The notes below the pieces were generated by a model, which did not search any database, was not told the origin of the DNA, and was given only the letters and a program-made list of their open reading frames with translations. Position numbers and translations under genes: made by a program. Positions 1-51,140 of a DNA stretch of 64,000 nucleotides are shown piece after piece (position 1 is the stretch's first letter; each line of letters begins with the position of its first letter). The stretch lies in the NCBI GenBank assembly GCA_965204865.1, contig OZ242027.1, positions 3,779,986-3,843,985 of the forward strand, in the 5' to 3' direction. Source of the DNA: Dehalococcoidia bacterium. GTDB taxonomy: Bacteria > Chloroflexota > Dehalococcoidia > Lucifugimonadales > UBA3495.

Positions 1-542
1 GCCAGGACATCTGCTTCATTCCGCTGGGCGACTACCGCGAGTTCCTGCGCCAGCGAGCCGAGGGGGCGCCGGGTGAAGTCGTTGACCTTAACGGCACCGT
101 GTTGGGCGGTCACCAGGGCATCGAATACTACACTGTGGGCCAGCGCCGGGGCTTGGGTTCGCTGCCGTACAGCGATGAGCCGCGCTACGTCGTCCGGCTG
201 GACGCCGCCGCCAACCGCGTGGTTGTCGGGCCGGAGAGCGCCCTCTACGCCGGGGAGGCGTGGCTGTCGGGCGTGAACTACGTCAGCGGCCACCCGCCCA
301 CCGACGGCGCGCCTGTCGCAGTCAAGATACGCTACAAGGCATACGAGGCCCCGGCGACGCTGCACCCCCGGCCCGGCGGTGCGCTGGTGCGCTTCCGCGA
401 CCCGCAGCGGGCCGTCACGCCAGGCCAGGCCGCGGTCTTCTATGACGGCGACACCTTGCTGGGCGGAGGCACCATCGAGCCGGAGGGTGAGGGTGGTCAC
501 AATCAGGAATCTGTGCCGATGAGTTATCGAATACTGGCATGA
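1..542 (+). CDS. mnmA: tRNA 2-thiouridine(34) synthase MnmA, C-terminal part (5' end outside window)
   Basis: Frame 3 reads QDICFIPLGDYREFL from base 3. It runs into ORF 99..542 (GIEYYTVGQRRGLG, VKIRYK) and is open to the window edge. Confidence 0.9.
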   Translation, partial: QDICFIPLGDYREFLRQRAEGAPGEVVDLNGTVLGGHQGIEYYTVGQRRGLGSLPYSDEPRYVVRLDAAANRVVVGPESALYAGEAWLSGVNYVSGHPPTDGAPVAVKIRYKAYEAPATLHPRPGGALVRFRDPQRAVTPGQAAVFYDGDTLLGGGTIEPEGEGGHNQESVPMSYRILA

Positions 543-4563: not shown

Positions 4564-5412
4564 CTAACGGGGAGGCACCGCAACGGACAGCTTCAGTTGG
4601 TCGTTGAGGCTGCCGGAGCGCAGAGGAGCTAGGTCCAGCGAGACCCACAGGTAGCCGATCTTCTTCAGCCCGGCAACGATTTCCTCGCGGTGGCGGAAGG
4701 CGATTTCCATGTCGGCCTCGGACGCCTCGACGCGGCAGAGCTTGTCGTGGTGCCGCGCACGCACTTCCCGCAGGCCCAAGCCGCGAAGGAAGTCCTCGGC
4801 CCGTTCGATTTTCGACAGCGTTTCCACGGTGACGGGCGTGCCGTAAGGCACCCGCGACGACAGGCAGGGCTGGGCGGGTTTGTCCCAGACGGGTATGTCC
4901 AGTTGTCGGGCTATGGCGCGCACCGCCGCCTTGTCCAGCCCGGCCTCCAGCAGCGGACTGCGGGCCTTGTGCTCCGCTGCCGCCTCCATGCCGGGGCGAT
5001 AGTCGCCCTGGTCGTCGGTGTTGGCGCCGTTGGCGACCCAGGCGTAGTTTTCGGCGTGGGCCAGCGCGGTCAGGTGAGTGTACAGCTCGGTCTTGCAGAA
5101 GTAGCAGCGGCGGGGTGAGTTAGCGGTATAGCCCTCGCGCTCCATCTCATTGGTGCGTATGACGCGGTGGGCGAAACCGAACTGCCGGGCCAGCCCCTCG
5201 GCCTCTTCCAGCTCGCGGGCCGCCAGCGCCGGAGAAACCGCGGTCACCGCCAGCGCGTGGCCGCCCAGCGTCTGGTGCGCGGCCACGGCCACCAGCGCGC
5301 TGTCCACGCCCCCGGAGAAGGCGGTCACCACCGACCCCATCTCCCACAGGATGCGGCGCAGCGCTTCAAGCCGTATGTCCAGACTTTCCGTTTCCAAGTT
5401 AATGTCCGCCAA
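4564..5412 (-). CDS. larE: ATP-dependent sacrificial sulfur transferase LarE (PP-loop ATPase)
   Basis: AFSGGVDSALVA PP-loop, a conserved Cys-containing region, and a position 3 nt upstream of larC. Confidence 0.9.
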   Translation of the reverse strand: MADINLETESLDIRLEALRRILWEMGSVVTAFSGGVDSALVAVAAHQTLGGHALAVTAVSPALAARELEEAEGLARQFGFAHRVIRTNEMEREGYTANSPRRCYFCKTELYTHLTALAHAENYAWVANGANTDDQGDYRPGMEAAAEHKARSPLLEAGLDKAAVRAIARQLDIPVWDKPAQPCLSSRVPYGTPVTVETLSKIERAEDFLRGLGLREVRARHHDKLCRVEASEADMEIAFRHREEIVAGLKKIGYLWVSLDLAPLRSGSLNDQLKLSVAVPPR

Positions 5413-5421
5413 AATCAGACG

Positions 5422-6192
5422 TTAAGTGCCTTCATTGAGGAACGCCGTCACCGCGTCGGCGAAGGCGTCGGGCTGTTCCAGCATCAGCAGATGCCCGGCG
5501 TCGGCTACGGTTCCCGTCCGCGACCCGGCAATCAGACCCTGGAAGTCGGCGGCGTAGGACGGCGGATTGATGCGGTCCTGCTCGCCCCACAGGATGAGCG
5601 TCGGGGCCTTGATGCGGTAGGCGCGGCGATGCAGCCCCTTGTCGGGCAGGGGCCAGAGGAACTTGCCAGCGGCGGCGATGTCCTGCATCCGGTCGCGGGC
5701 CAGCATATCGGGCAGTCCGTTGAGGGATGCCGCACCGTCGGGGGTTGCGGTCAGACGTTCCGACAGTTCGTTGGCGTTCAGGGCCAGCAGGTCGGCTACC
5801 GGCTCCTCGTCGCGCCACACTCCTGCCGGCGAAACCAGAGCCAGCCGGTTCACTGACTGCGGCGAGAAGGCGGCCATCTCGGCGGCAATCATCCCGCCGA
5901 GGAAGTGGCCCACGACGTGGGCGCGTTCAACGCCAAGGGCGTCCAGCAGCGCCAGATGATACAGGGTCAGGTCGGTGAGGTCGGCCAGATGCTCCAGCCC
6001 GGCGGCCTCGCCGTAGCCGGGGATATACGGGGCGTAGACGGTGAACTGGCGCGACAGCCGCTCCAGGAACGGCGCCCACCCCTTCTGCCCTACCGCCCCG
6101 TGCAGGTACAGTAGCGGCGGCCCGTCCCCGCTCGTCTCGACGATGGCGCGAAAGTCGCCGCCGCGCATTTCCAGGTTGATAGTTTCAGGCAT
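5422..6192 (-). CDS. alpha/beta-hydrolase-fold protein with Phe at the nucleophile position
   Basis: LLYLHGAVG, the nucleophile elbow reads VVGHFLGG (canonical G-H-S-x-G-G), and the C-terminal His is present (DAGHLLMLEQP). Confidence 0.75.
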   Translation of the reverse strand: MPETINLEMRGGDFRAIVETSGDGPPLLYLHGAVGQKGWAPFLERLSRQFTVYAPYIPGYGEAAGLEHLADLTDLTLYHLALLDALGVERAHVVGHFLGGMIAAEMAAFSPQSVNRLALVSPAGVWRDEEPVADLLALNANELSERLTATPDGAASLNGLPDMLARDRMQDIAAAGKFLWPLPDKGLHRRAYRIKAPTLILWGEQDRINPPSYAADFQGLIAGSRTGTVADAGHLLMLEQPDAFADAVTAFLNEGT

Positions 6193-7717
6193 CGTTGCTC
6201 CGCTGGTTCAAGATACTTTGCGGCACCGGAAAGTCCTTGATAAACGACTTGGCGTAAGACATCCAGCCCCCTTGATATGGCCGGCTGGTTTGACGGATGA
6301 AAAAGTCCATGTCGTCCGAATTTAGCACATCCTGTAGTGCGGTCATGTCAATCGTCTGCTTGGGTTTGATGCAGTATCCTGAATAGAAAGTCGCTTCCGG
6401 ATTAGGGCAGCGCTGGAAATTCGGATGCCGGTTCATGCCGGAGGTCAGGATCTTGTCGCCAAAACCGGATAGTATCGAAACCTGGCGGCCGAATCCGTAC
6501 CACTTGGTTGGGTCAAATTTACCCTTGTCCCGGTTCAGCAAGCGGTTTTTATGGAGCGACAGCCATTCGTAAGCTGCTGGGGCCTGCTCTGCGATATATT
6601 CCTCCGTCAGTAGCTTGCCGTCAGCGGAGTAAGGGAAGATGACAACCCGGTTTACCGGGTCTTCCCCTCCTTTCATAACGGACGCCTTGACTACATCCCG
6701 CAATATCCAGCTTTCCAAGTATACGGTTTCTCCGCCAATGTCGCAGGGCAAACAATCAGCGTCCTTACGATTAACCTGGCTCTGTCCGGCCAGCGGCAAG
6801 ATGAACACGTCGTCGGCCAGCGTCTGGAGGCCGACGTGAATATCCGCTATATCGGACAAAACCGGGCCGCGCATCACCAAATCGTTCATGCGCTCCCGCT
6901 CAGCGCCGGTTGAGGCCACCCACGATTGGGACGGGTTGGCGTAATCAACGGATATTGTGCCAGCATCTTCAAAACCCGAGCCATTAAATCTTTCCGCTGG
7001 TATGGACACGCACATCCCGCCTTTCTTGATTATCGCTATGACGGTGTACGTAGTTGCGTCATCAAATACTTGATGCTCAGCGAAATCTATGATTTTCCTT
7101 ACCGTATGCTCAGTGACCAGCATACGGCGCAGCATGGAACCGGAATCCGAGCGCAGCCAGCTTGACGGCGAAATGTAGCCTAATACGCCGCCCTCGCGGA
7201 GCAGGTCTAGCCCAAGTTCGTAGAACACCAGATACAAGTCGGTAGCCCCGCGAATCACATCCCATTGACCCGCAATGCGACTGCGCCCGGATTGCTCCAA
7301 ATGCTGAACTCTCACATACGGCGGATTTCCGACTACGTGGGTGAAACGTCCGAAATCGCCTCTGAACGTCTTCTTATCAAGGGCGTTTCGCTGGCGCAGC
7401 CGCCATTCAATCCGCTCCTCGGGATACCAGCCGGACAACACCCCGTCCAGCCGGTTGCGGCAAAGGGCGATGGCCTCCCGGTCTATGTCGTAGCCGGTCA
7501 TCCTGCGCAACACGGTCAGCGCATCGTCTCGTTGCAGCCGGGTCAAGACCCGCTGTGCTACCGACGTCAGAAAAGCCCCGTTGCCGCAGGCTGGGTCGCA
7601 TATAACCGAGTCAGCCAAATCCCTTGCCTGAACAGGCAAGACATTATCCAGGATGAGGCTGACAATCGGCTCCGGCGTATAGACTACGCCGTGCCGCTTC
7701 TTTTCGGATGTAATCAT
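6185..7717 (-). CDS. N6-adenine DNA methyltransferase, Eco57I/TaqI-like gamma class (type II R-M)
   Basis: GVVYTP (motif X), CDPACGNGAFL (motif I), VVGNPPYV (motif IV), and a long C-terminal target-recognition region. GC is lower than the flanks. Confidence 0.85.
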   Translation of the reverse strand: MITSEKKRHGVVYTPEPIVSLILDNVLPVQARDLADSVICDPACGNGAFLTSVAQRVLTRLQRDDALTVLRRMTGYDIDREAIALCRNRLDGVLSGWYPEERIEWRLRQRNALDKKTFRGDFGRFTHVVGNPPYVRVQHLEQSGRSRIAGQWDVIRGATDLYLVFYELGLDLLREGGVLGYISPSSWLRSDSGSMLRRMLVTEHTVRKIIDFAEHQVFDDATTYTVIAIIKKGGMCVSIPAERFNGSGFEDAGTISVDYANPSQSWVASTGAERERMNDLVMRGPVLSDIADIHVGLQTLADDVFILPLAGQSQVNRKDADCLPCDIGGETVYLESWILRDVVKASVMKGGEDPVNRVVIFPYSADGKLLTEEYIAEQAPAAYEWLSLHKNRLLNRDKGKFDPTKWYGFGRQVSILSGFGDKILTSGMNRHPNFQRCPNPEATFYSGYCIKPKQTIDMTALQDVLNSDDMDFFIRQTSRPYQGGWMSYAKSFIKDFPVPQSILNQRSNDA

Positions 7718-8403
7718 GGCGACAGATGCCTCAACTCAATGCGCCGGGCCATCCTCACGAAGAACAGGTTTAGGCTGAGGGCATTCGCCAGTGCGCCGCG
7801 GCTGTTTTCGCTTATATCCAAGTCTGCCGGATTAGTAATTCCGGTTACAGCATCCTGCTCAATGTCCAGCTCAACGATCCCTAGCGCCATTTCCTGTGGC
7901 GCGTGTATATGTTCGTGGTCGGCTCGGAGACTGGCGTACCGCTGGATGTCATGCTCCCTGATAGCTTCCAGTCTGGTAATTTCTCCGGCCCTGTTCTTGT
8001 AGGGTATGGGATTGGTGACACAGAACAGATTGCCGTATACCACATTTCGGCGGCGCAAGTTGGCGGTTTCGCCGATTTGCTGTTCCAAGTAGTTGATTGA
8101 ATTTTGCCAGTAATTTGAGATAACGAATTTAATGCTAATCACGCCAAGCTCTTGCCCGTCCCTTGATACTAGGACGTCAACGTCCTTGCCGTAGTACATA
8201 CCCTCAACGTTAGCTTCGTGAGTGCTTGCTGGCGATTGGCCGGTGAAAGCGTAACCGGCGCCTAACTCCCTGCGGAGTTCGTCTTGAACCCAACCGTGAA
8301 GAACTCTCGTTTTCTGGTTGGAGCGAGTCCCATACTCCAGCACCATCTGATATGACCGTTGCATCGCTGCCAAGAATCGCTGCTGTATATCAGCGTTGAC
8401 CAT
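7714..8403 (-). CDS. putative type II restriction endonuclease (PD-(D/E)XK-like)
   Basis: Its stop overlaps the methyltransferase start (ATGA). GKDVDVLVSRDGQELGVISIKF fits a D-X(n)-S/E-x-K nuclease core. No recognisable family; the start is taken at MVNAD. Confidence 0.55.
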   Translation of the reverse strand: MVNADIQQRFLAAMQRSYQMVLEYGTRSNQKTRVLHGWVQDELRRELGAGYAFTGQSPASTHEANVEGMYYGKDVDVLVSRDGQELGVISIKFVISNYWQNSINYLEQQIGETANLRRRNVVYGNLFCVTNPIPYKNRAGEITRLEAIREHDIQRYASLRADHEHIHAPQEMALGIVELDIEQDAVTGITNPADLDISENSRGALANALSLNLFFVRMARRIELRHLSP

Positions 8404-8420
8404 ATTCTTATTGCCCGCGG

Positions 8421-9317
8421 CTACAACCCCGCGTACCACTCCGCGATGGCCGCGCCGATTTCGTGGGGCGAGTCTTCCTGGATGAAGTGAACGCCGGGGA
8501 CGGTTACCTCGCGCTGGTTGGGGAAGGCGCGGCAGAACTCACGTTGCGGGCCGGTTAGGATGGCGCCGGGTTCAGCGTTTATGAACAGCTTGGGCGTGGG
8601 GGTTTGCGACAGCCATTCAGCGTAGTCGGCGACGATTGCCACTACGTCGGGCGGCTCGCCATCGATGGGGATTTCGCGGGGCCAGGACAGCGTGGGGCGG
8701 CGCGACTCGCCGGGTTCGGTGTAGCGGCGGCGGTAGACCTCCATCGCCTCGTCGCTGATGCCGTTGATGGTGCTGCCCGGTAGGACGCGCTCGACGAAGA
8801 TGTTGCGCTCCAGCACCATGCTCTCGCCCGCCTCGGAGCGGAACCCTTGGAACACCTGCTTCGCCGCTTCCGGCCACTCGTCCCAGGTCACCGGGCGCAC
8901 GATGGCCTCCATGTATACCAGTCCGCGAATCCGTTCGGGATTGCGACGCGACCAGTGGAAGCCGAGGGCGGAACCCCAGTCGTGCACCACCAGCGTCACC
9001 GGGCCGTCGGGCAGCACGGCATCGAACCAGGCGTCCAGGTAACGGCTGTGGTCGGCGAAGCGGTACGAACCTTCGGGGGTGGCGTCAGACTCGCCCATGC
9101 CCATCAGGTCGGGAGCCAGGCAGCGGGCCAGCGGCGAGACGTAGGGGATGATGTTGCGCCACAGGTAGGACGACGTGGGGTTGCCATGCAGGAACACCAC
9201 CGCGCCGTCGGACGCGGCGGCAGGGCTGCCGGTGTCCACGTAGACCATCTCGACGCCACCAATGTCGGCGCGGTGGCGGGGGTGGGGGTCGTGGGGGGAG
9301 ATCGGAGTATCAGTCAA
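8421..9317 (-). CDS. haloalkane dehalogenase (HLD-II type alpha/beta hydrolase)
   Basis: VVFLHGNPTSSYLWRNIIPYV, Asp nucleophile in VVHDWGSALGF, and C-terminal HFIQEDSPHEIG. Confidence 0.9.
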   Translation of the reverse strand: MTDTPISPHDPHPRHRADIGGVEMVYVDTGSPAAASDGAVVFLHGNPTSSYLWRNIIPYVSPLARCLAPDLMGMGESDATPEGSYRFADHSRYLDAWFDAVLPDGPVTLVVHDWGSALGFHWSRRNPERIRGLVYMEAIVRPVTWDEWPEAAKQVFQGFRSEAGESMVLERNIFVERVLPGSTINGISDEAMEVYRRRYTEPGESRRPTLSWPREIPIDGEPPDVVAIVADYAEWLSQTPTPKLFINAEPGAILTGPQREFCRAFPNQREVTVPGVHFIQEDSPHEIGAAIAEWYAGL

Positions 9318-44510: not shown

Positions 44511-44702
44511 TCATCCCAAATACTTGAGGATGAGGGTCAACGCCGCTAGCGCGACTCCTATGCCGGTCATCAACCAGCGCATGGCACGCATCTCGCCGCG
44601 CAACTCGCGCATCTCACCACGTAAATCAGCAATATCTTCTTTGGTGGCTATATGGGGGCTGGCTCCCTCCAGTCTGCTGACCCGGTCTTCAATAGTAGCC
44701 AT
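44511..44702 (-). CDS. small C-terminally anchored coiled-coil protein (XhlA/DUF1640-like)
   Basis: RVSRLEG...DLRGEMRELRGEMRAMR, then TM WLMTGIGVALAALTLIL. GGAGAAAG RBS. Confidence 0.5.
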   Translation of the reverse strand: MATIEDRVSRLEGASPHIATKEDIADLRGEMRELRGEMRAMRWLMTGIGVALAALTLILKYLG

Positions 44703-46789: not shown

Positions 46790-48166
46790 ATGACCATGTA
46801 CGCGGAAAGGCTGCTGCCTCACAACCTGGAGGCGGAGGAAGCGGTCATTGGCTCGCTGCTGATTGACGGCGAGTGCTTCTCGCGGGTCGCCCCGGTGCTG
46901 CAACCCGGCGACTTCTACCGCGAGCGCAACCAGCTCTGCTTCGCCGCGGCCATGGCCCTGTTCCAGCGGGACCAGGCTATAGACCAGCTAACCCTGGCCG
47001 GGGAACTGGCGCGCACCGAGAAGCTGGACGCCGTGGGCGGGATGGCCTACCTTTCGCACCTGGTGTCCATCACCCCCACCTCGGCTCACTCCGAGGAATA
47101 CGCCGAAATCGTCTCGCGCACCGCCACCATGCGCAAGCTCATTGACGCCGCGGCCCAGATTTCGGCGCTGGGCTACAACGACACCGACGACGTGGACGCC
47201 ACGCTGCGGCAGGCAGAGGACGCGCTGTTCGCCGTCCGGGGGGCGGGCCAGGCCAGGGGCTTCATACCGCTGCGGCAGATTTACGACCAGTATCTGCAAG
47301 ACCGGGCGGGAGTGGCCGAGCCGCTGCTGGACGTGGGCGGGCCGGTGATGTCGGGCTATGCCGACCTGGACGAGTTGCTGGGCGGCATACAGCGGTCGGA
47401 CATGGTGATACTGGGGGCGCGCCCGTCGCTGGGCAAGAGCACCCTGGCGCTGAACATCTGCCTCAACGCCGCCCGCAACGGCTCCACTGCCGGCATCTTC
47501 AGCCTGGAGATGAGCCGTGAGCAGCTCGGTATGCGCATCCTGTCCTCGGAGGCCGAGGTTGACTCTCACCGGCTGCGGCTGGACCTGACCACCTTCGCCG
47601 AGCAGCAGCGCATCATTGACGCCATCGGCCAGCTTTCAGACCTGCCGGTGTACATAGACGACACGCCCTACCAGGGCATGGTGGAGATGCGGAGCAAGGC
47701 GCGGCGGCTGTCGCTGGAGCATGGCCTGGACTTGCTGGTGGTGGACTACCTGCAACTGGTGGAGGGCCCGAGGCGCGGCGGCTACGGCGCCAACCGGGTG
47801 CAGGAAATCAGCGAGATTTCCCGTTCCCTGAAAGCGATGGCCCGCGACCTGGGCGTCGCCCTCGTCGCCTGCTCGCAGTTGAGCCGCCTGGTGGAGAACC
47901 GCCCCAGCCACCGGCCCCTGCTATCCGACCTGCGCGACAGCGGCAGCATTGAGCAGGACGCCGACGTGGTGATGTTCATTCACCGCGAGGACGTCTACAC
48001 CAGCGAAGAGGAATGGGAGCAGCAGCGCCCCGGCCAGCCCTACCCCAAGAACATCGCCGACATCATAGTCGCCAAGCACCGCAACGGCCCCACCGGGAAC
48101 ATACAATTGGAGTTCCGCGACAACCTGGTGCGATTCGACTCCTTCGCCCGCGTCCCCGAGTACTAG
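46790..48166 (+). CDS. dnaB: replicative DNA helicase DnaB
   Basis: LPHNLEAEEAVIGSLLID, Walker A GARPSLGKST, Walker B LLVVDYLQL, and SDLRDSGSIEQDAD. Continuous 458 aa with no intein. Confidence 0.95.
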   Translation: MTMYAERLLPHNLEAEEAVIGSLLIDGECFSRVAPVLQPGDFYRERNQLCFAAAMALFQRDQAIDQLTLAGELARTEKLDAVGGMAYLSHLVSITPTSAHSEEYAEIVSRTATMRKLIDAAAQISALGYNDTDDVDATLRQAEDALFAVRGAGQARGFIPLRQIYDQYLQDRAGVAEPLLDVGGPVMSGYADLDELLGGIQRSDMVILGARPSLGKSTLALNICLNAARNGSTAGIFSLEMSREQLGMRILSSEAEVDSHRLRLDLTTFAEQQRIIDAIGQLSDLPVYIDDTPYQGMVEMRSKARRLSLEHGLDLLVVDYLQLVEGPRRGGYGANRVQEISEISRSLKAMARDLGVALVACSQLSRLVENRPSHRPLLSDLRDSGSIEQDADVVMFIHREDVYTSEEEWEQQRPGQPYPKNIADIIVAKHRNGPTGNIQLEFRDNLVRFDSFARVPEY

Positions 48167-48181
48167 ACGGGGGTGCTGGAC

Positions 48182-48228
48182 ATGGCCTTTAACGGCTTCC
48201 CCCGCGACACGCTCTACACGCCCACGCC
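48182..48228 (+). pseudogene. 47-nt remnant duplicating the 5' end of the dnaD-like gene
   Basis: ATGGCCTTTAACGGCTTCCCCCGCGACACGCTCTACACGCCCACGCC is 43/47 identical to 49076..49122. The reading frame dies shortly after. Confidence 0.85.
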
Positions 48229-48257
48229 TCCACAACATTTCGGAAGGAACCCAGAAT

Positions 48258-49070
48258 ATGACACAAGTAATGTCTGGCTACCCAGAACTTGACTCGTTCG
48301 TTAGCCTAGAACCATCCCAATTGGTAGTCATCGCCGGGCACACTTCTATAGGCAAGAGCGCCCTCGCTCTGAATATTTGCATCAATGCCGCCAAGAACGG
48401 TTCCCGAGTAGTCATTTTCAATCTAGAAATGAGAGCTGAAACCATCAACCTGCGCACCCTGTCTTCTGAGGCTGAGGTTGATTCCTATCGCCTGCGGCTG
48501 GACTTAACCACCTTAGCTGAGCAGCAGCGTATCATCGACGTCATCGGCTATCTTTCCGACCTGCCTCTTAACATTGACGACACCCCTGGCCAGACTGCGA
48601 CGCAGATCATAAGCAAAGCACGGCGACTGGCTCTGGAGCACGGTATAGACCTGATTGTAGTGGATTACCTACAGCTAGTGGAGGGGAACAGTGGTCCCGG
48701 AACAAGCCGAACTCAAGAAATTAGCGAAATCTTCCAGTCGCTCAAATTCCTAGCCCAAGAATTCGAAGTTCCGATCATAGTCTGCTCTCAGCTTAATTCG
48801 AGGGGCGAGGGCCCTTATAGCCGCCAACCGCAGTTGTTAGACTTGCCTGACTCCATAGCTCTTGAGGCGGATACGGTGATGTTCATCCATCGTGAAGACT
48901 TGTACATCACCGAAGTAGAATGGGAGATACTACATCCGGGTTACCTATATCCCCAGAATATCGCATACATCATCATAGCCAAGAACAACAACGGCCCGAC
49001 GGGTACCGTACAGCTCTTGTTCCGGGACTTTCTTACGCGCTTCGATTCCTATAATTGGGCCAGTGGTTAA
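48258..49070 (+). CDS. stand-alone DnaB C-terminal (RecA-like) domain paralogue
   Basis: Starts at VMSGYPELD, aligning with DnaB VMSGYADLD. Long shared runs (LSSEAEVDS-RLRLDLTT-AEQQRIID). Walker A and B are kept, but SDLRDSGSIEQDAD is replaced by LDLPDSIALEADT. AT-shifted codons. Confidence 0.8.
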   Translation: MTQVMSGYPELDSFVSLEPSQLVVIAGHTSIGKSALALNICINAAKNGSRVVIFNLEMRAETINLRTLSSEAEVDSYRLRLDLTTLAEQQRIIDVIGYLSDLPLNIDDTPGQTATQIISKARRLALEHGIDLIVVDYLQLVEGNSGPGTSRTQEISEIFQSLKFLAQEFEVPIIVCSQLNSRGEGPYSRQPQLLDLPDSIALEADTVMFIHREDLYITEVEWEILHPGYLYPQNIAYIIIAKNNNGPTGTVQLLFRDFLTRFDSYNWASG

Positions 49071-49075
49071 TTGAT

Positions 49076-49870
49076 ATGCCCTTCAACGGCTTTCCCCGCG
49101 ACACGCTCTACACTCCCACGCCCGACCCGCTCTTCGGCCCGCTGCTGGAGGAAATGCACGACATCGCGGAGCTGAAGGTGACGCTGCGGGGGCTGTGGCT
49201 GCTGCACCACAAGCGTCAGAGCGTGCGGGCCGTCTCGCTGGACGAGTTTCTGGCCGACACTACGCTGCTGCGGGGGCTGTGTCCTTCAACTGACACTAGC
49301 CCTTCGACAAGCTCAGGGCAAACGGGGGCGGAATCCGGAGACGTTGCCGAGGAAATACGGCGTGGCCTGCGGCTGGCGGTGCGCCGGGGCGTCTTCCTGG
49401 CCCACGAGGCCGGAGCGGGCCGGGTGTATTTCGCGGTCAACAACGACGCCGGACGCCGCACCATCGCCCGTATGAAGCAAACAGGCGCGGAGCCCAGCGA
49501 CGTTTCATTCGGTGCAGACGAGGCCCCGGCGGGAATGCAGGAGCGCCCCAACATCTTCGCCCTGTACGAAAACATCATTGGGTTGATCTCGCCCATCATG
49601 GCCGAGCGGCTCAAGGAGGCCGAAGAACGCTACCCGCCGGGCTGGATCAGGGAAGTATTCGAGATTGCGGAACTGGAAAACAAGCGCAACTGGCAATACA
49701 TTGACGCCATCCTGAAGCGCTGGGGATCGGAGGGCAAGGGCGGATGGAAGGGGGGAAGCAATGACGATGGAAAGCCTGGGCGACATTCTCCGCAGAATCA
49801 GCGCGGGAAGTATAGCCAAGACTACGAACGGTATCGGCGCCGGGCATCATCCAGAACCCGCGCCCGCTGA
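49076..49870 (+). CDS. DnaD-domain replication protein
   Basis: C-terminal NIFALYENIIGLISPIMAERLKEAEERYPPGWIREVFEIAELENKRNWQYIDAILKRW matches the DnaD/DnaB_2 repeat. Carries an in-frame family E insert. Confidence 0.7.
   Translation: MPFNGFPRDTLYTPTPDPLFGPLLEEMHDIAELKVTLRGLWLLHHKRQSVRAVSLDEFLADTTLLRGLCPSTDTSPSTSSGQTGAESGDVAEEIRRGLRLAVRRGVFLAHEAGAGRVYFAVNNDAGRRTIARMKQTGAEPSDVSFGADEAPAGMQERPNIFALYENIIGLISPIMAERLKEAEERYPPGWIREVFEIAELENKRNWQYIDAILKRWGSEGKGGWKGGSNDDGKPGRHSPQNQRGKYSQDYERYRRRASSRTRAR
49299..49326. repeat. Family E unit inside the dnaD-like CDS
   Basis: GCCCTTCGACAAGCTCAGGGCAAACGGG, encoding SPSTSSGQTG. Confidence 0.85.
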
Positions 49871-51140
49871 CCGCTGCGCCACCTGCAACGGCTCCGGCTG
49901 GGTGACCCGCCGTATGCCCGTCGGACACCCGGAGTTCGGTCAAGCCGTCCCCTGTCCCTCCTGCCGCAACGATGAGGAATCCCCGGCCCGCCGGGACTCG
50001 CTGCGGCGGTACAGCAACCTGGGCGCGTTAGCCGGCGTTACCTTCGCCGCCACCCGGGCGGAAGGCCCGCTGGCCGATCCCGGGGCGCGGCGGATGTTCG
50101 CCGAAGCCTTTGCCCAAGCCGCTTCATACGCCGAGAACCCGCAGGGCTGGCTGGTGCTGACCGGCCCCTCCGGCAGCGGCAAGACCCATCTCGCCGCCGC
50201 CATCGCCAACCGCTGCATCGAGCGGCAGCAGACCACCTTCTTCATCATGGTGGCCGACCTGCTGGACCACCTGCGCGCCGCTTACGCGCCCGACAGCCCC
50301 ACCACCTACGACGAGCTGTTCGAGCAGGTGCGCAACGTGCCGCTGCTGGTGCTGGACGACCTGGGCGTCCACAGCGCCACGCCGTGGGCGCAGGAAAAGC
50401 TGTTCCAGGTCATCAACCACCGCCACAACAACAACCTGCCAACCGTCGTAACCTTTCGAGGCCCGCTGGCCCGGATGGACGAATTGCTGCGCACTCGCCT
50501 GGAAGCCGCCGATGGGCGTTCCGCTGTCCTACAGTTGGGCCACTTCAACACCCGCCTGGCTCTGGGCATCGGCGAAGTGCGCCCTGAAATGCTGGAGCGG
50601 ATGAAGTTCACCAACTTCAATCCGGCGGGAAGCCCCAAGGCAACCGACAAGGACCGGGACACACTGGCCCACGCCGTCAGCGCCTCCCGCATCTTCGCCA
50701 GCTTTCCCGAGGGCTGGCTATTCTTCACCGGAGCGCGGGGTTGCGGCAAGACGCACCTGGCGGTCGCCATAGCCGGGGAGAGCCTGCAACAGGGGCGGCA
50801 GGTGTTCTTCGCTTTCGTGCCGACGCTGCTGGACCACCTTCGCACCACTTACAGCCCCGATAGTCCTGTGGGTTTCGACGAGATTTTCGAGCAGGTGCTA
50901 AACGTTCCCCTGCTTATTCTCGATGATCTGGGCGCGGAAAACAGCACTGCCTGGGCGGAGGAGAAGCTCTACCAGATAATCGTCCACCGCCACGAAGCTC
51001 GTCTGCCCACAGTAATCACCACCGCCTCGCAAATGGAAGATCTAGAGAGAGCAAGGCCCCGCATCGCCTCCCGGCTGGTGGACTGGCTGGTGGTGGACTG
51101 GGTGCCGATAGACGCCCCCAACTACCGCGACCAGCGTTAG
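49761..51140 (+). CDS. DnaC/DnaI-type helicase loader with two tandem AAA+ modules and an N-terminal zinc ribbon
   Basis: CATCNGSGW...CPSCRN. Module 1: LTGPSGSGKTHLAAAIAN...LLVLDDLG. Module 2: FTGARGCGKTHLAVAIAG...LLILDDLGAE. The two modules are clearly paralogous along their length. Confidence 0.8.
   Translation: MTMESLGDILRRISAGSIAKTTNGIGAGHHPEPAPADRCATCNGSGWVTRRMPVGHPEFGQAVPCPSCRNDEESPARRDSLRRYSNLGALAGVTFAATRAEGPLADPGARRMFAEAFAQAASYAENPQGWLVLTGPSGSGKTHLAAAIANRCIERQQTTFFIMVADLLDHLRAAYAPDSPTTYDELFEQVRNVPLLVLDDLGVHSATPWAQEKLFQVINHRHNNNLPTVVTFRGPLARMDELLRTRLEAADGRSAVLQLGHFNTRLALGIGEVRPEMLERMKFTNFNPAGSPKATDKDRDTLAHAVSASRIFASFPEGWLFFTGARGCGKTHLAVAIAGESLQQGRQVFFAFVPTLLDHLRTTYSPDSPVGFDEIFEQVLNVPLLILDDLGAENSTAWAEEKLYQIIVHRHEARLPTVITTASQMEDLERARPRIASRLVDWLVVDWVPIDAPNYRDQR

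Follow-up and report, generated by a model that had tools for sequence, protein, structure and literature searches.

A candidate pseudo-helicase encoded between dnaB and dnaD in Dehalococcoidia

We analysed a 64,000-nt stretch of the genome of a sponge-associated Dehalococcoidia bacterium (GCA_965204865.1, contig OZ242027.1, positions 3,779,986–3,843,985; hereafter the window), in which a replication gene cluster, rplI–dnaB–CTD'–dnaD–dnaC/I, carries an additional gene between that for the replicative helicase, dnaB, and a dnaD-like gene. This gene, which we call CTD', is co-directional with dnaD, lies a few bases from it and encodes only the RecA-like C-terminal domain (CTD) of DnaB (Table 1). 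A first-pass annotation, made from the letters alone, had described an 847-bp AT-shifted segment (48229–49075) encoding just this domain, and its coordinates, its GC content of 0.50 (vs 0.66 for dnaB) and its assignment to Pfam DnaB_C were confirmed. So were a start at the VMSGY boundary with its own ATG and ribosome-binding site (RBS; GGAAGGAA, 8 nt ahead of the ATG), and a flanking 47-nt repeat of the dnaD start, whose upstream copy (copy A) stands 15 nt after the dnaB stop. The copies at 48182–48228 and 49076–49122 (copy B) agree at 43 of 47 positions, or at 45 of 50 when three more bases are included. A promoter and terminator scan returned nothing beyond chance.

Table 1 Features of the dnaB–CTD'–dnaD region (window positions; NTD, N-terminal domain; ORF, open reading frame; ssDNA, single-stranded DNA; Bst, reference DnaB numbering given in the text)
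Feature	Position	Strand	Remarks
rplI (L9)		+	Start of the rplI–dnaB–CTD'–dnaD–dnaC/I cluster in the window
Resident full-length dnaB, 458 aa	46790..48166	+	NTD, linker and CTD; Pfam DnaB and DnaB_C
Native dnaB–dnaD spacer, 15 nt	48167..48181	+	Contains dnaD ribosome-binding region; aligns with the uninterrupted junctions of L002, L003 and L013
Repeat copy A, first 47 nt of dnaD (MAFNGFPRDTLYTPTP)	48182..48228	+	Upstream of CTD'; 15 nt past the dnaB stop
36-codon ORF opened by the dnaD remnant	48182..48292	+	Spacer, RBS and ATG still there; TGA at 48290-48292
Old decayed continuation of the dnaD-5' remnant, with RBS GGAAGGAA (48242-48249)	48229..48257	+	Upstream of the CTD' ATG
CTD' gene, 270-aa stand-alone DnaB RecA-like domain	48258..49070	+	Pfam DnaB_C only; no NTD, no linker helix
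Walker A / P-loop GHTSIGKS, retained	48336..48359	+	GKS/T kept in 5/5 paralogues
Degenerate motif H4 (ssDNA-binding loop) LDLPDSIALEAD	48837..48872	+	Bst R381 replaced by P197; G384 lost; loop 2 residues shorter
Beta-hairpin AKNNNGP	48978..48998	+	K418 equivalent kept; arginine finger Bst R420 replaced by N244
Spacer TTGAT between CTD' TAA and dnaD ATG	49071..49075	+	Shortened, AT-shifted
Repeat copy B, functional dnaD start	49076..49122	+	43/47 identical to copy A
dnaD-like gene (DnaB_2/DnaD domain)	49076..49870	+	Pfam PF07261; syntenic in all relatives
DnaC/DnaI-like loader, two AAA+ (IstB-like) modules	49761..51140	+	Last gene of the cluster; Pfam IstB_IS21, two stretches

In a Pfam scan the CTD' protein matched only DnaB_C (PF03796, 1.7e-66), the N-terminal helical collar domain (PF00772) being absent, and the linker helix is missing from the window copy too. 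Its alignment with residues 186–452 of the resident DnaB begins at the fourth residue (VMSGY) and shows 60% identity. The two genes had been thought to differ largely at third codon positions; this did not hold, as codon-aligned nucleotide identity is 65%, nonsynonymous divergence (dN) 0.30 and amino-acid divergence 40%. The resident DnaB, to which many Dehalococcoidia DnaBs are 85–98% identical, scores 473 bits on the NCBIfam equivalog model TIGR00665, above its cut-off of 385, compared with 247 bits for the window CTD'.

Motifs were numbered from a HMMER alignment to the G. stearothermophilus/G. kaustophilus DnaB (Bst). Walker A (GHTSIGKS) and Walker B (VVDYLQL) are retained, as the first-pass annotation had said, together with the catalytic glutamate (FNLEM) and the H3 glutamine (CSQLN). 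The conserved block SDLRDSGSIEQDAD, which had been taken for the arginine finger, is in fact motif H4, the ssDNA loop, and is canonical in the resident DnaB, as is the finger there (AKHRNGP). At this position the window CTD' reads LDLPDS-IALE-AD, against SDL-R381-E382-S-G384-SIEQDAD in Bst. In DnaB, each subunit touches two ssDNA phosphates through the H4 residues R381, E382 and G384 (PMC6391071). The arginine finger proper is R420, within the beta-hairpin AK418-Q-R420-NGP (PMC3236778; PMC12214026), and it has been lost separately in the window copy; mutation R420A abolishes the ATPase and helicase activities of DnaB (PMC3236778). An AlphaFold2 model of CTD' was confident (predicted local distance difference test score 86.7, predicted template modelling score 0.86) and superposed on DnaB CTDs with template modelling scores of 0.84–0.89 (root-mean-square deviation of 1.6 Å for 4ESV). 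Its only disordered stretch, residues 183–186, lies directly before the degenerate H4 loop.

In a search of 5.8 billion proteins the closest match to the window CTD' was itself; nothing else exceeded 61% identity, and the best of the remainder were full-length Dehalococcoidia DnaBs. One short match, P0105, shares derived characters with the window protein; an exhaustive search by profile and a further one based on words added other members, and the dnaB–CTD'–dnaD layout is now seen in five Chloroflexota lineages: the window (270 aa), L009 (P0105, 293 aa, directly after a full dnaB and before dnaD), L010, also L011 (P0122, 311 aa), L053 (P0289, 271 aa) and L012 (P0134, 306 aa). Alongside these four additional occurrences, the uninterrupted dnaB–dnaD junction was found in L002, L003, L013 and a contig, X4, considered below. 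In all five CTD' proteins R381 is lost (P, P, A, P, P), G384 is gone and the H4 loop is two residues shorter, while the P-loop, the Walker B aspartate and K418 are kept; the arginine finger is missing from the window copy only. The H4 arginine and glycine and the finger arginine are kept in 82 of 82 other DnaB-family loci from metagenomes and viral contigs. A scan of metagenomes with the family profile returned only canonical dnaB loci, none of the 82 further DnaB-family loci bearing a tandem second CTD. No curated family claims any CTD' protein, and members score 177–265 bits on the DnaB equivalog model.

Independent contigs span both junctions of the insert, and the junctions are therefore real. 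Logan contigs from two runs (X1, X2) cover 47951–49600 with 0 differences, and a third (X3), from a sponge metagenome in a separate study, covers 47959–49123 with 6 differences over 1165 nt. A further contig (X4) joins 48199 to 49094, skipping 894 nt, and so represents the uninterrupted dnaB–dnaD junction. Its strain differs from the window at 2 positions in 250 nt of the dnaB 3' end (99.2% identity) and is 92% identical in dnaD; the CTD' insert is therefore present or absent among very close strains, and the empty site in a strain of 99% identity points to gain or loss of CTD' that is still going on. The 47-bp repeat, together with the flanking dnaB and dnaD homology, would allow the cassette to be lost, or transferred between relatives, by homologous recombination.

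All five CTD' ORFs are intact, with every indel in frame. Among pairs of CTD' paralogues synonymous divergence (dS) is saturated (at least 1.9) and dN is 0.26–0.57, giving dN/dS (omega) of 0.12–0.29 and about 0.16–0.2 for the window copy, alongside 0.23–0.25 for dnaD by the same method and 0.01–0.2 for dnaB; with dS saturated, these omega values are rough. When the resident CTD was neutrally diverged to 35%, only 0.05% of simulations left the frame open; in the CTD' segment itself, the five alternative frames are interrupted by 10–23 stops. Five intact frames despite saturated dS, the low omega and the rarity of neutral openness argue that CTD' is not a pseudogene, and it is almost certainly a real gene under purifying selection of roughly the strength seen for dnaD.

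Phylogenetically, the copies from the window, L009, L053 and L010 group together as a single clade (100/99) on a long stem, sister to the whole host DnaB clade (92/85; 94/89 in a first tree), with tips of 0.26–1.04 substitutions per site vs 0.004–0.07 for host DnaBs. The L012 copy nests within the DnaBs of its own, different lineage (99/99), also with the H4 columns removed, and all five CTD' were united in 0 of 200 bootstrap trees built without those columns. The CTD'–dnaD spacer aligns with the dnaB–dnaD spacer, and a 14-nt deletion and an AT shift in it are common to the window, L009, L010 and L053. Remnants of the dnaD 5' end lie upstream of CTD' in the window (fresh), L010 (TAG-spacer-ATGCCTTT...) and L009 (weak), those of L009 and L010 being heavily decayed. 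The window remnant can be traced to about +62 nt of dnaD: dnaD-start identity in copy A stops sharply at 48228, and the following 'TTCGGAAGGAA..AATATG' (48229..48257) aligns with 'TTTGAAGGAAAG..AAATATG' of L009 and weakly with dnaD +48..62. The four-copy clade, its shared spacer and the dnaD remnants point to the footprint of one old tandem duplication. A dnaD 5' end at both borders of CTD' and a paralogous downstream spacer are what a tandem segmental duplication leaves, and CTD' very probably arose by one that ran from mid-dnaB to the first dnaD codons. In L012 the CTD' start (TAG-ATG-GCA) is identical to the dnaD start, and the duplication boundary there is therefore a different one. Because the L012 copy nests separately and has this different boundary, the duplication at the dnaB–dnaD junction appears from the sequences to have arisen at least twice. 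In both origins the same DNA-contacting arginine was lost, the loop was shortened by two residues, evolution was faster and GC at third codon positions (GC3) is about 0.5. The suggestion of a recombination scar thus survives in part: the repeat is the footprint of a recombination or duplication that joined a dnaB-3' paralogue to the dnaD 5' end, and CTD' is no private scar, as the gene occupies this junction in four other lineages.

The composition of CTD' had been read as the mark of a foreign fragment. GC3 is 0.58 in the window CTD' vs 0.90 in dnaB, and across all five members 0.47–0.58 beside dnaB genes at 0.74–0.90; local non-coding DNA has a GC content of 0.50–0.58, close to the CTD' values, and most real genes of the window have GC3 of 0.76–0.91, CTD' being the lowest. 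Because both independent origins show the shift, it does not indicate foreignness; the most fitting explanation is that constraint on composition and codon use is relaxed in a weakly constrained, probably weakly expressed gene. Such relaxation would also give a dS among the paralogues far above that among the neighbouring dnaB genes (0.43–1.46).

Several other accounts of the locus were considered. An assembly artefact, that is, a chimeric or collapsed join, is conceivable since paralogous repeats can mislead assemblers and probably did so in another metagenome-assembled genome (L136, below); it is refuted by the contigs from three runs that cross both junctions, and an exact variant of the protein (I118V) is recorded on a Logan contig as well. 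A plain pseudogene or neutral duplication scar, still open by chance, would fit the AT drift toward the composition of non-coding DNA, the loss of two catalytically important arginines from the window copy, the dispensability of the gene and the fact that none of the runs containing it is RNA-labelled. That all relatives' copies are intact, with in-frame indels and omega far from 1, that a neutral copy would stay open with a probability of only about 5e-4 each, that the P-loop, Walker B and K418 are conserved in all five and that the fold is modelled confidently make this reading highly improbable; it is largely refuted, and with it the earlier idea of a decaying copy. A single old origin could also be proposed in place of two, the L012 copy having been overwritten by gene conversion from the neighbouring dnaB in a way that spared H4. 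A test for conversion between dnaB and CTD' gave a weak signal only, at window codons ~60–105 with +0.07 identity to its own dnaB, and own-host affinity counts were not decisive; one origin with gene conversion would likewise imply selection to keep H4 different.

How CTD' came to the window is a separate matter. It may have been imported recently, as a pre-existing cassette of old remnant, CTD', spacer and dnaD 5' end. Its source would be a related Dehalococcoidia and its route homologous recombination through dnaB and dnaD-start homology on the left and dnaD on the right, with a left crossover at 48228 that refreshed the dnaD remnant. Several features are in keeping with this: at 48228 a near-native dnaD start switches sharply to an old, decayed remnant and 50%-GC DNA; the first 18 nt of copy A (48182–48199), which hold three sites that discriminate copies A and B, equal the X4 dnaD start, while copy B differs from it at those three sites; X4 is far closer to the window in the dnaB 3' end than in dnaD; the closest relatives (L001, L002 and L050, DnaB 97.6% identical) have no CTD', the more distant L009, L010 and L053 do; and the remnant is heavily decayed in L009 and L010. 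Against it, the X4 dnaD start is exactly the product expected of a crossover deletion between A and B, being A-type at three sites and then B-type (at the fourth discriminating site we infer from the 20-nt ambiguity of the joint that X4 follows copy B). Moreover, dnaD is intrinsically more variable than dnaB everywhere and shows no clean step that would mark the end of a recombination tract, no donor closer than 57% is known, and low GC3 is a trait of the family, not a mark of foreignness. We therefore hold import to be possible but doubtful; it concerns only the arrival of CTD' and is compatible with our preferred explanation of its nature.

We lean, by a modest margin of confidence, toward CTD' being a pseudo-helicase that carries an ATP site, is blind to DNA and works through contacts with DnaB or its loaders. 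That it is not a helicase is the firmer part and is probable, since the NTD collar and the ssDNA loop needed for translocation have been lost; that it acts on DnaB or a loader is a more tentative proposal. Without collar and DNA loop CTD' could not serve as a translocating helicase, and the window copy would also be unable to activate the ATP site of an adjacent subunit. With its fold, nucleotide pocket and subunit surfaces all DnaB-like, CTD' would remain suited to protein–protein contacts. It might join DnaB protomers as a non-translocating, ring-capping or ring-poisoning partner, or bind the DnaD or DnaC-like loaders that recognize the DnaB CTD, and in either case would tune helicase loading or activity; the earlier suggestion that CTD' is a partly inactive subunit, either built into the helicase ring or regulating it, is still the best functional guess. 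DnaB stripped of its NTD but not of the linker still forms a hexamer and hydrolyses ATP; when the linker is missing as well, the protein is dimeric or monomeric and no longer acts as a helicase (PMC1888833). The loaders DnaC, lambda P and DciA dock at the docking-helix/linker-helix nexus of the DnaB CTD (PMC12214026).

Several points weigh against this reading. Its functional part is drawn from motif states and context, and the omega values behind the case for selection are, as said, rough. The ATPase site is patchy among the five members (catalytic glutamate in 4/5, H3 glutamine in 3/5, finger in 4/5), and the linker helix differs too: a linker-helix-like N-terminal extension is present in L010 and L012, partial in L009 and absent from the window and L053, so that one common mechanism is not obvious. 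A second DnaB_C region was found in none of 40 species-representative Dehalococcoidia dnaB loci, and the closest relatives (DnaB 94–98% identical) have a dnaB–dnaD spacer of 14–16 nt (L002, L003–L006, L013, L048) or 51 nt (L050). Given these loci and the 99%-identical strain without it, the CTD' gene is clearly rare, patchy and dispensable. No RNA-labelled run contains the CTD' stretch, X1 and X2 not being labelled RNA. Lastly, L136:4001-5356 (GCA_022572445.1, JACZVY010000012.1) holds a hybrid gene, the only dnaB-like gene on its metagenome-assembled-genome contig, encoding a 451-aa 'DnaB' that is a normal dnaB to codon ~266 and from codons ~267–451 is 100% identical in nucleotides to the L012 paralogue, degenerate H4 included. 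Because L012, from the same population, has a canonical dnaB 3' end followed by the paralogue, the hybrid is probably an assembly collapse across the paralogous stretch; were it real, a DnaB with degenerate H4 could serve as the sole helicase, which would challenge the DNA-blind interpretation. As deposited, the hybrid would receive the annotation of replicative helicase for its genome.

Two other functions were weighed. As a decoy or guard, CTD' would mimic the DnaB motor and soak up or sense phage or plasmid hijackers or inhibitors of the helicase (lambda-P-like or DnaC-like loaders, helicase inhibitors), thereby shielding DnaB. Its patchy, strain-variable occurrence, an evolution at least 10 times faster than that of DnaB on the tree, the lowest GC3 of the window's real genes, the retention of fold and surfaces with an apparent discarding of DNA binding, and the fact that every known loader, phage or cellular, docks where the docking helix and linker of the CTD meet would suit such a role. 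We nevertheless consider it improbable: no known defence family was matched, PADLOC-DB 2.0 giving only weak local P-loop matches (mad8, 15–24 bits); the gene belongs to a core replication operon with ribosomal genes, outside any defence island, and has no neighbouring defence or mobile genes; and omega well below 1 gives no sign of diversifying selection. Still less likely, and very improbable in our view, is an autonomous second helicase akin to the NTD-free, single-domain DnaB-type helicases of plasmids and phages. The single RecA core of mycobacteriophage Wildcat Gp80 is an active helicase (PMC4523182), an N-terminally truncated H. pylori DnaB is still active, and the P-loop and Walker B of CTD' are intact; yet the ssDNA-contacting H4 residues, invariant in 82/82 DnaB-family loci including viral ones, are lost in 5/5 CTD', the window copy has neither the arginine finger, whose mutation abolishes both activities (PMC3236778), nor the hexamer linker, and no related genes occur on viral contigs.

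Among known proteins, mycobacteriophage single-domain RecA-core proteins such as the Wildcat Gp80 core are likewise stand-alone DnaB-type motors without an NTD; they are encoded by phages and branch as a deep clade of their own, and helicase activity has been shown for the core that was tested (PMC4523182), whereas CTD' is chromosomal, nests beside host DnaB and has no DNA-binding loop. In a search of viral contigs the best relatives of CTD' were just 25–32% identical. Engineered N-terminal truncations of DnaB (E. coli, G. stearothermophilus, H. pylori, SPP1 G40P; PMC1888833) have boundaries near-identical to those of the CTD' variants with and without linker, but were made in the laboratory, and their H4 loops and arginine fingers are intact. 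With DnaB itself (TIGR00665; PF00772 plus PF03796) CTD' shares the RecA-like fold, P-loop, catalytic glutamate, Walker B and H3 glutamine, and it derives from the host dnaB; it differs from DnaB in having no collar, in the window no linker helix and no finger, in all members a destroyed H4 and a score below the cut-off, and in being dispensable and fast-evolving. Degenerate ATPase-fold partners are familiar among Rad51/RecA paralogues and in the clamp-loader delta-prime subunit, which function, where this is known, through assembly with or regulation of an active homologue. CTD' resembles them in keeping the ATPase fold while key catalytic or substrate residues have been lost, and its partner may be DnaB. 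To our knowledge no degenerate partner paralogue has been described for bacterial DnaB, and the collection of papers searched contained no description of a CTD'-like DnaB paralogue.

Three short matches were rejected as members of the family: P0051, from a 1x long-read contig, is a dnaB carrying a frameshift, and P0096 and P0113 are canonical CTDs, P0096 lying in a ParA/toxin, mobile-like context. At L008:4001-4798 a stand-alone canonical (H4-intact) DnaB CTD of 265 aa lies amid many small ORFs of no assigned function, a ParA-like gene and a YafQ/ParE-type toxin. The arrangement is suggestive of a replication module of plasmid or phage type in related Chloroflexota-type sequence; no gene is called in the 550 nt upstream, so that an N-terminal part may have gone undetected. 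Other proteins from the exhaustive search (among them P0208, P0151, P0217 and P0245) resemble CTD' in being ~280–320 aa long, in matching DnaB_C only and in having the H4 arginine replaced, but do not adjoin dnaB and dnaD where the context is readable, and branch with other DnaB lineages. P0151 is on an unrelated AT-rich contig. On a hydrothermal-vent contig (L137:3066-4603), a 186-aa DnaC/IstB-like gene is immediately followed by the 310-aa, DnaB_C-only P0208, with the H4 arginine changed to proline (NLPQGG); the two are possibly a mobile-element helicase/loader pair with a degenerate DNA loop.

Other material was found at the same junction in relatives. Enlarged dnaB–dnaD gaps (L001, L014, L019, L026–L032) are not remains of CTD'; they gave no BLAST match and contain an unrelated 86-aa ORF or MITE-like repeats (MITE, miniature inverted-repeat transposable element). 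The insert at L001:5372-5868 is this 86-aa coiled-coil and transmembrane small ORF, which has its own strong RBS and a decayed copy at L014:5375-5822. In style it resembles a 63-aa ORF at window 44511-44702 (-), and the L053 gene at the matching position hits PF10805 (DUF2730); such ORFs may be a small mobile gene family, and the dnaB–dnaD spacer an insertion hot spot. In several species the spacers (L026, L028, L030, L031, L032 and L051, ~5375-5665) are filled by a common repeat of at least ~35 nt ('GGTCGGATGGACGAACGATTCGGCTGAAACCATG...') with hairpin-like, GC-rich flanking arms, which looks like an element of the MITE or repetitive extragenic palindromic type.

Within the window, the 36-codon ORF opened by the dnaD remnant overlaps the CTD' start codon in another frame and ends 32 nt inside CTD'. 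It is not conserved in the other CTD' members, L009 having no ATG for it; translational coupling of CTD' to dnaB through this ORF is possible. The loader downstream has a cysteine-rich N-terminus ahead of its two IstB-type AAA+ stretches and, as called (49761-51140), overlaps the dnaD 3' end by ~110 nt; since its relatives are called at 408 aa, the true start probably lies further downstream. Two adjacent genes at 6185-8439 (-), of 510 and 241 aa with GC3 of 0.66 and 0.61, alone among the remaining real genes come close to the AT shift of CTD', and may be accessory or recently acquired.

In annotation pipelines, genes such as CTD' receive the label 'replicative DNA helicase', and an assembler can merge them with dnaB, as probably happened in L136. 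For study, CTD' offers a natural reagent for separating the roles of the CTD surface from translocation, and an example of a duplicate of an essential ring ATPase that is retained without poisoning the ring. Helicase loading is the committed step of bacterial replication, and its known control is exerted by loaders such as DnaC/DnaI, DciA and lambda P, every one of which docks on the DnaB CTD. A natural, selected copy of that domain alone would add a new kind of participant, a paralogue with a dead motor that is encoded between helicase and loaders. In its widest form, which we think unlikely though worth stating, Dehalococcoidia would have made, at least twice, a DNA-blind half-dnaB protein that plugs, caps or titrates the helicase or its loaders, as a layer of control, or a decoy, not recognized until now; if that is true, the parallel loss of the ssDNA-gripping arginine and loop would be the adaptive step that turned a poisonous extra subunit into a regulator.

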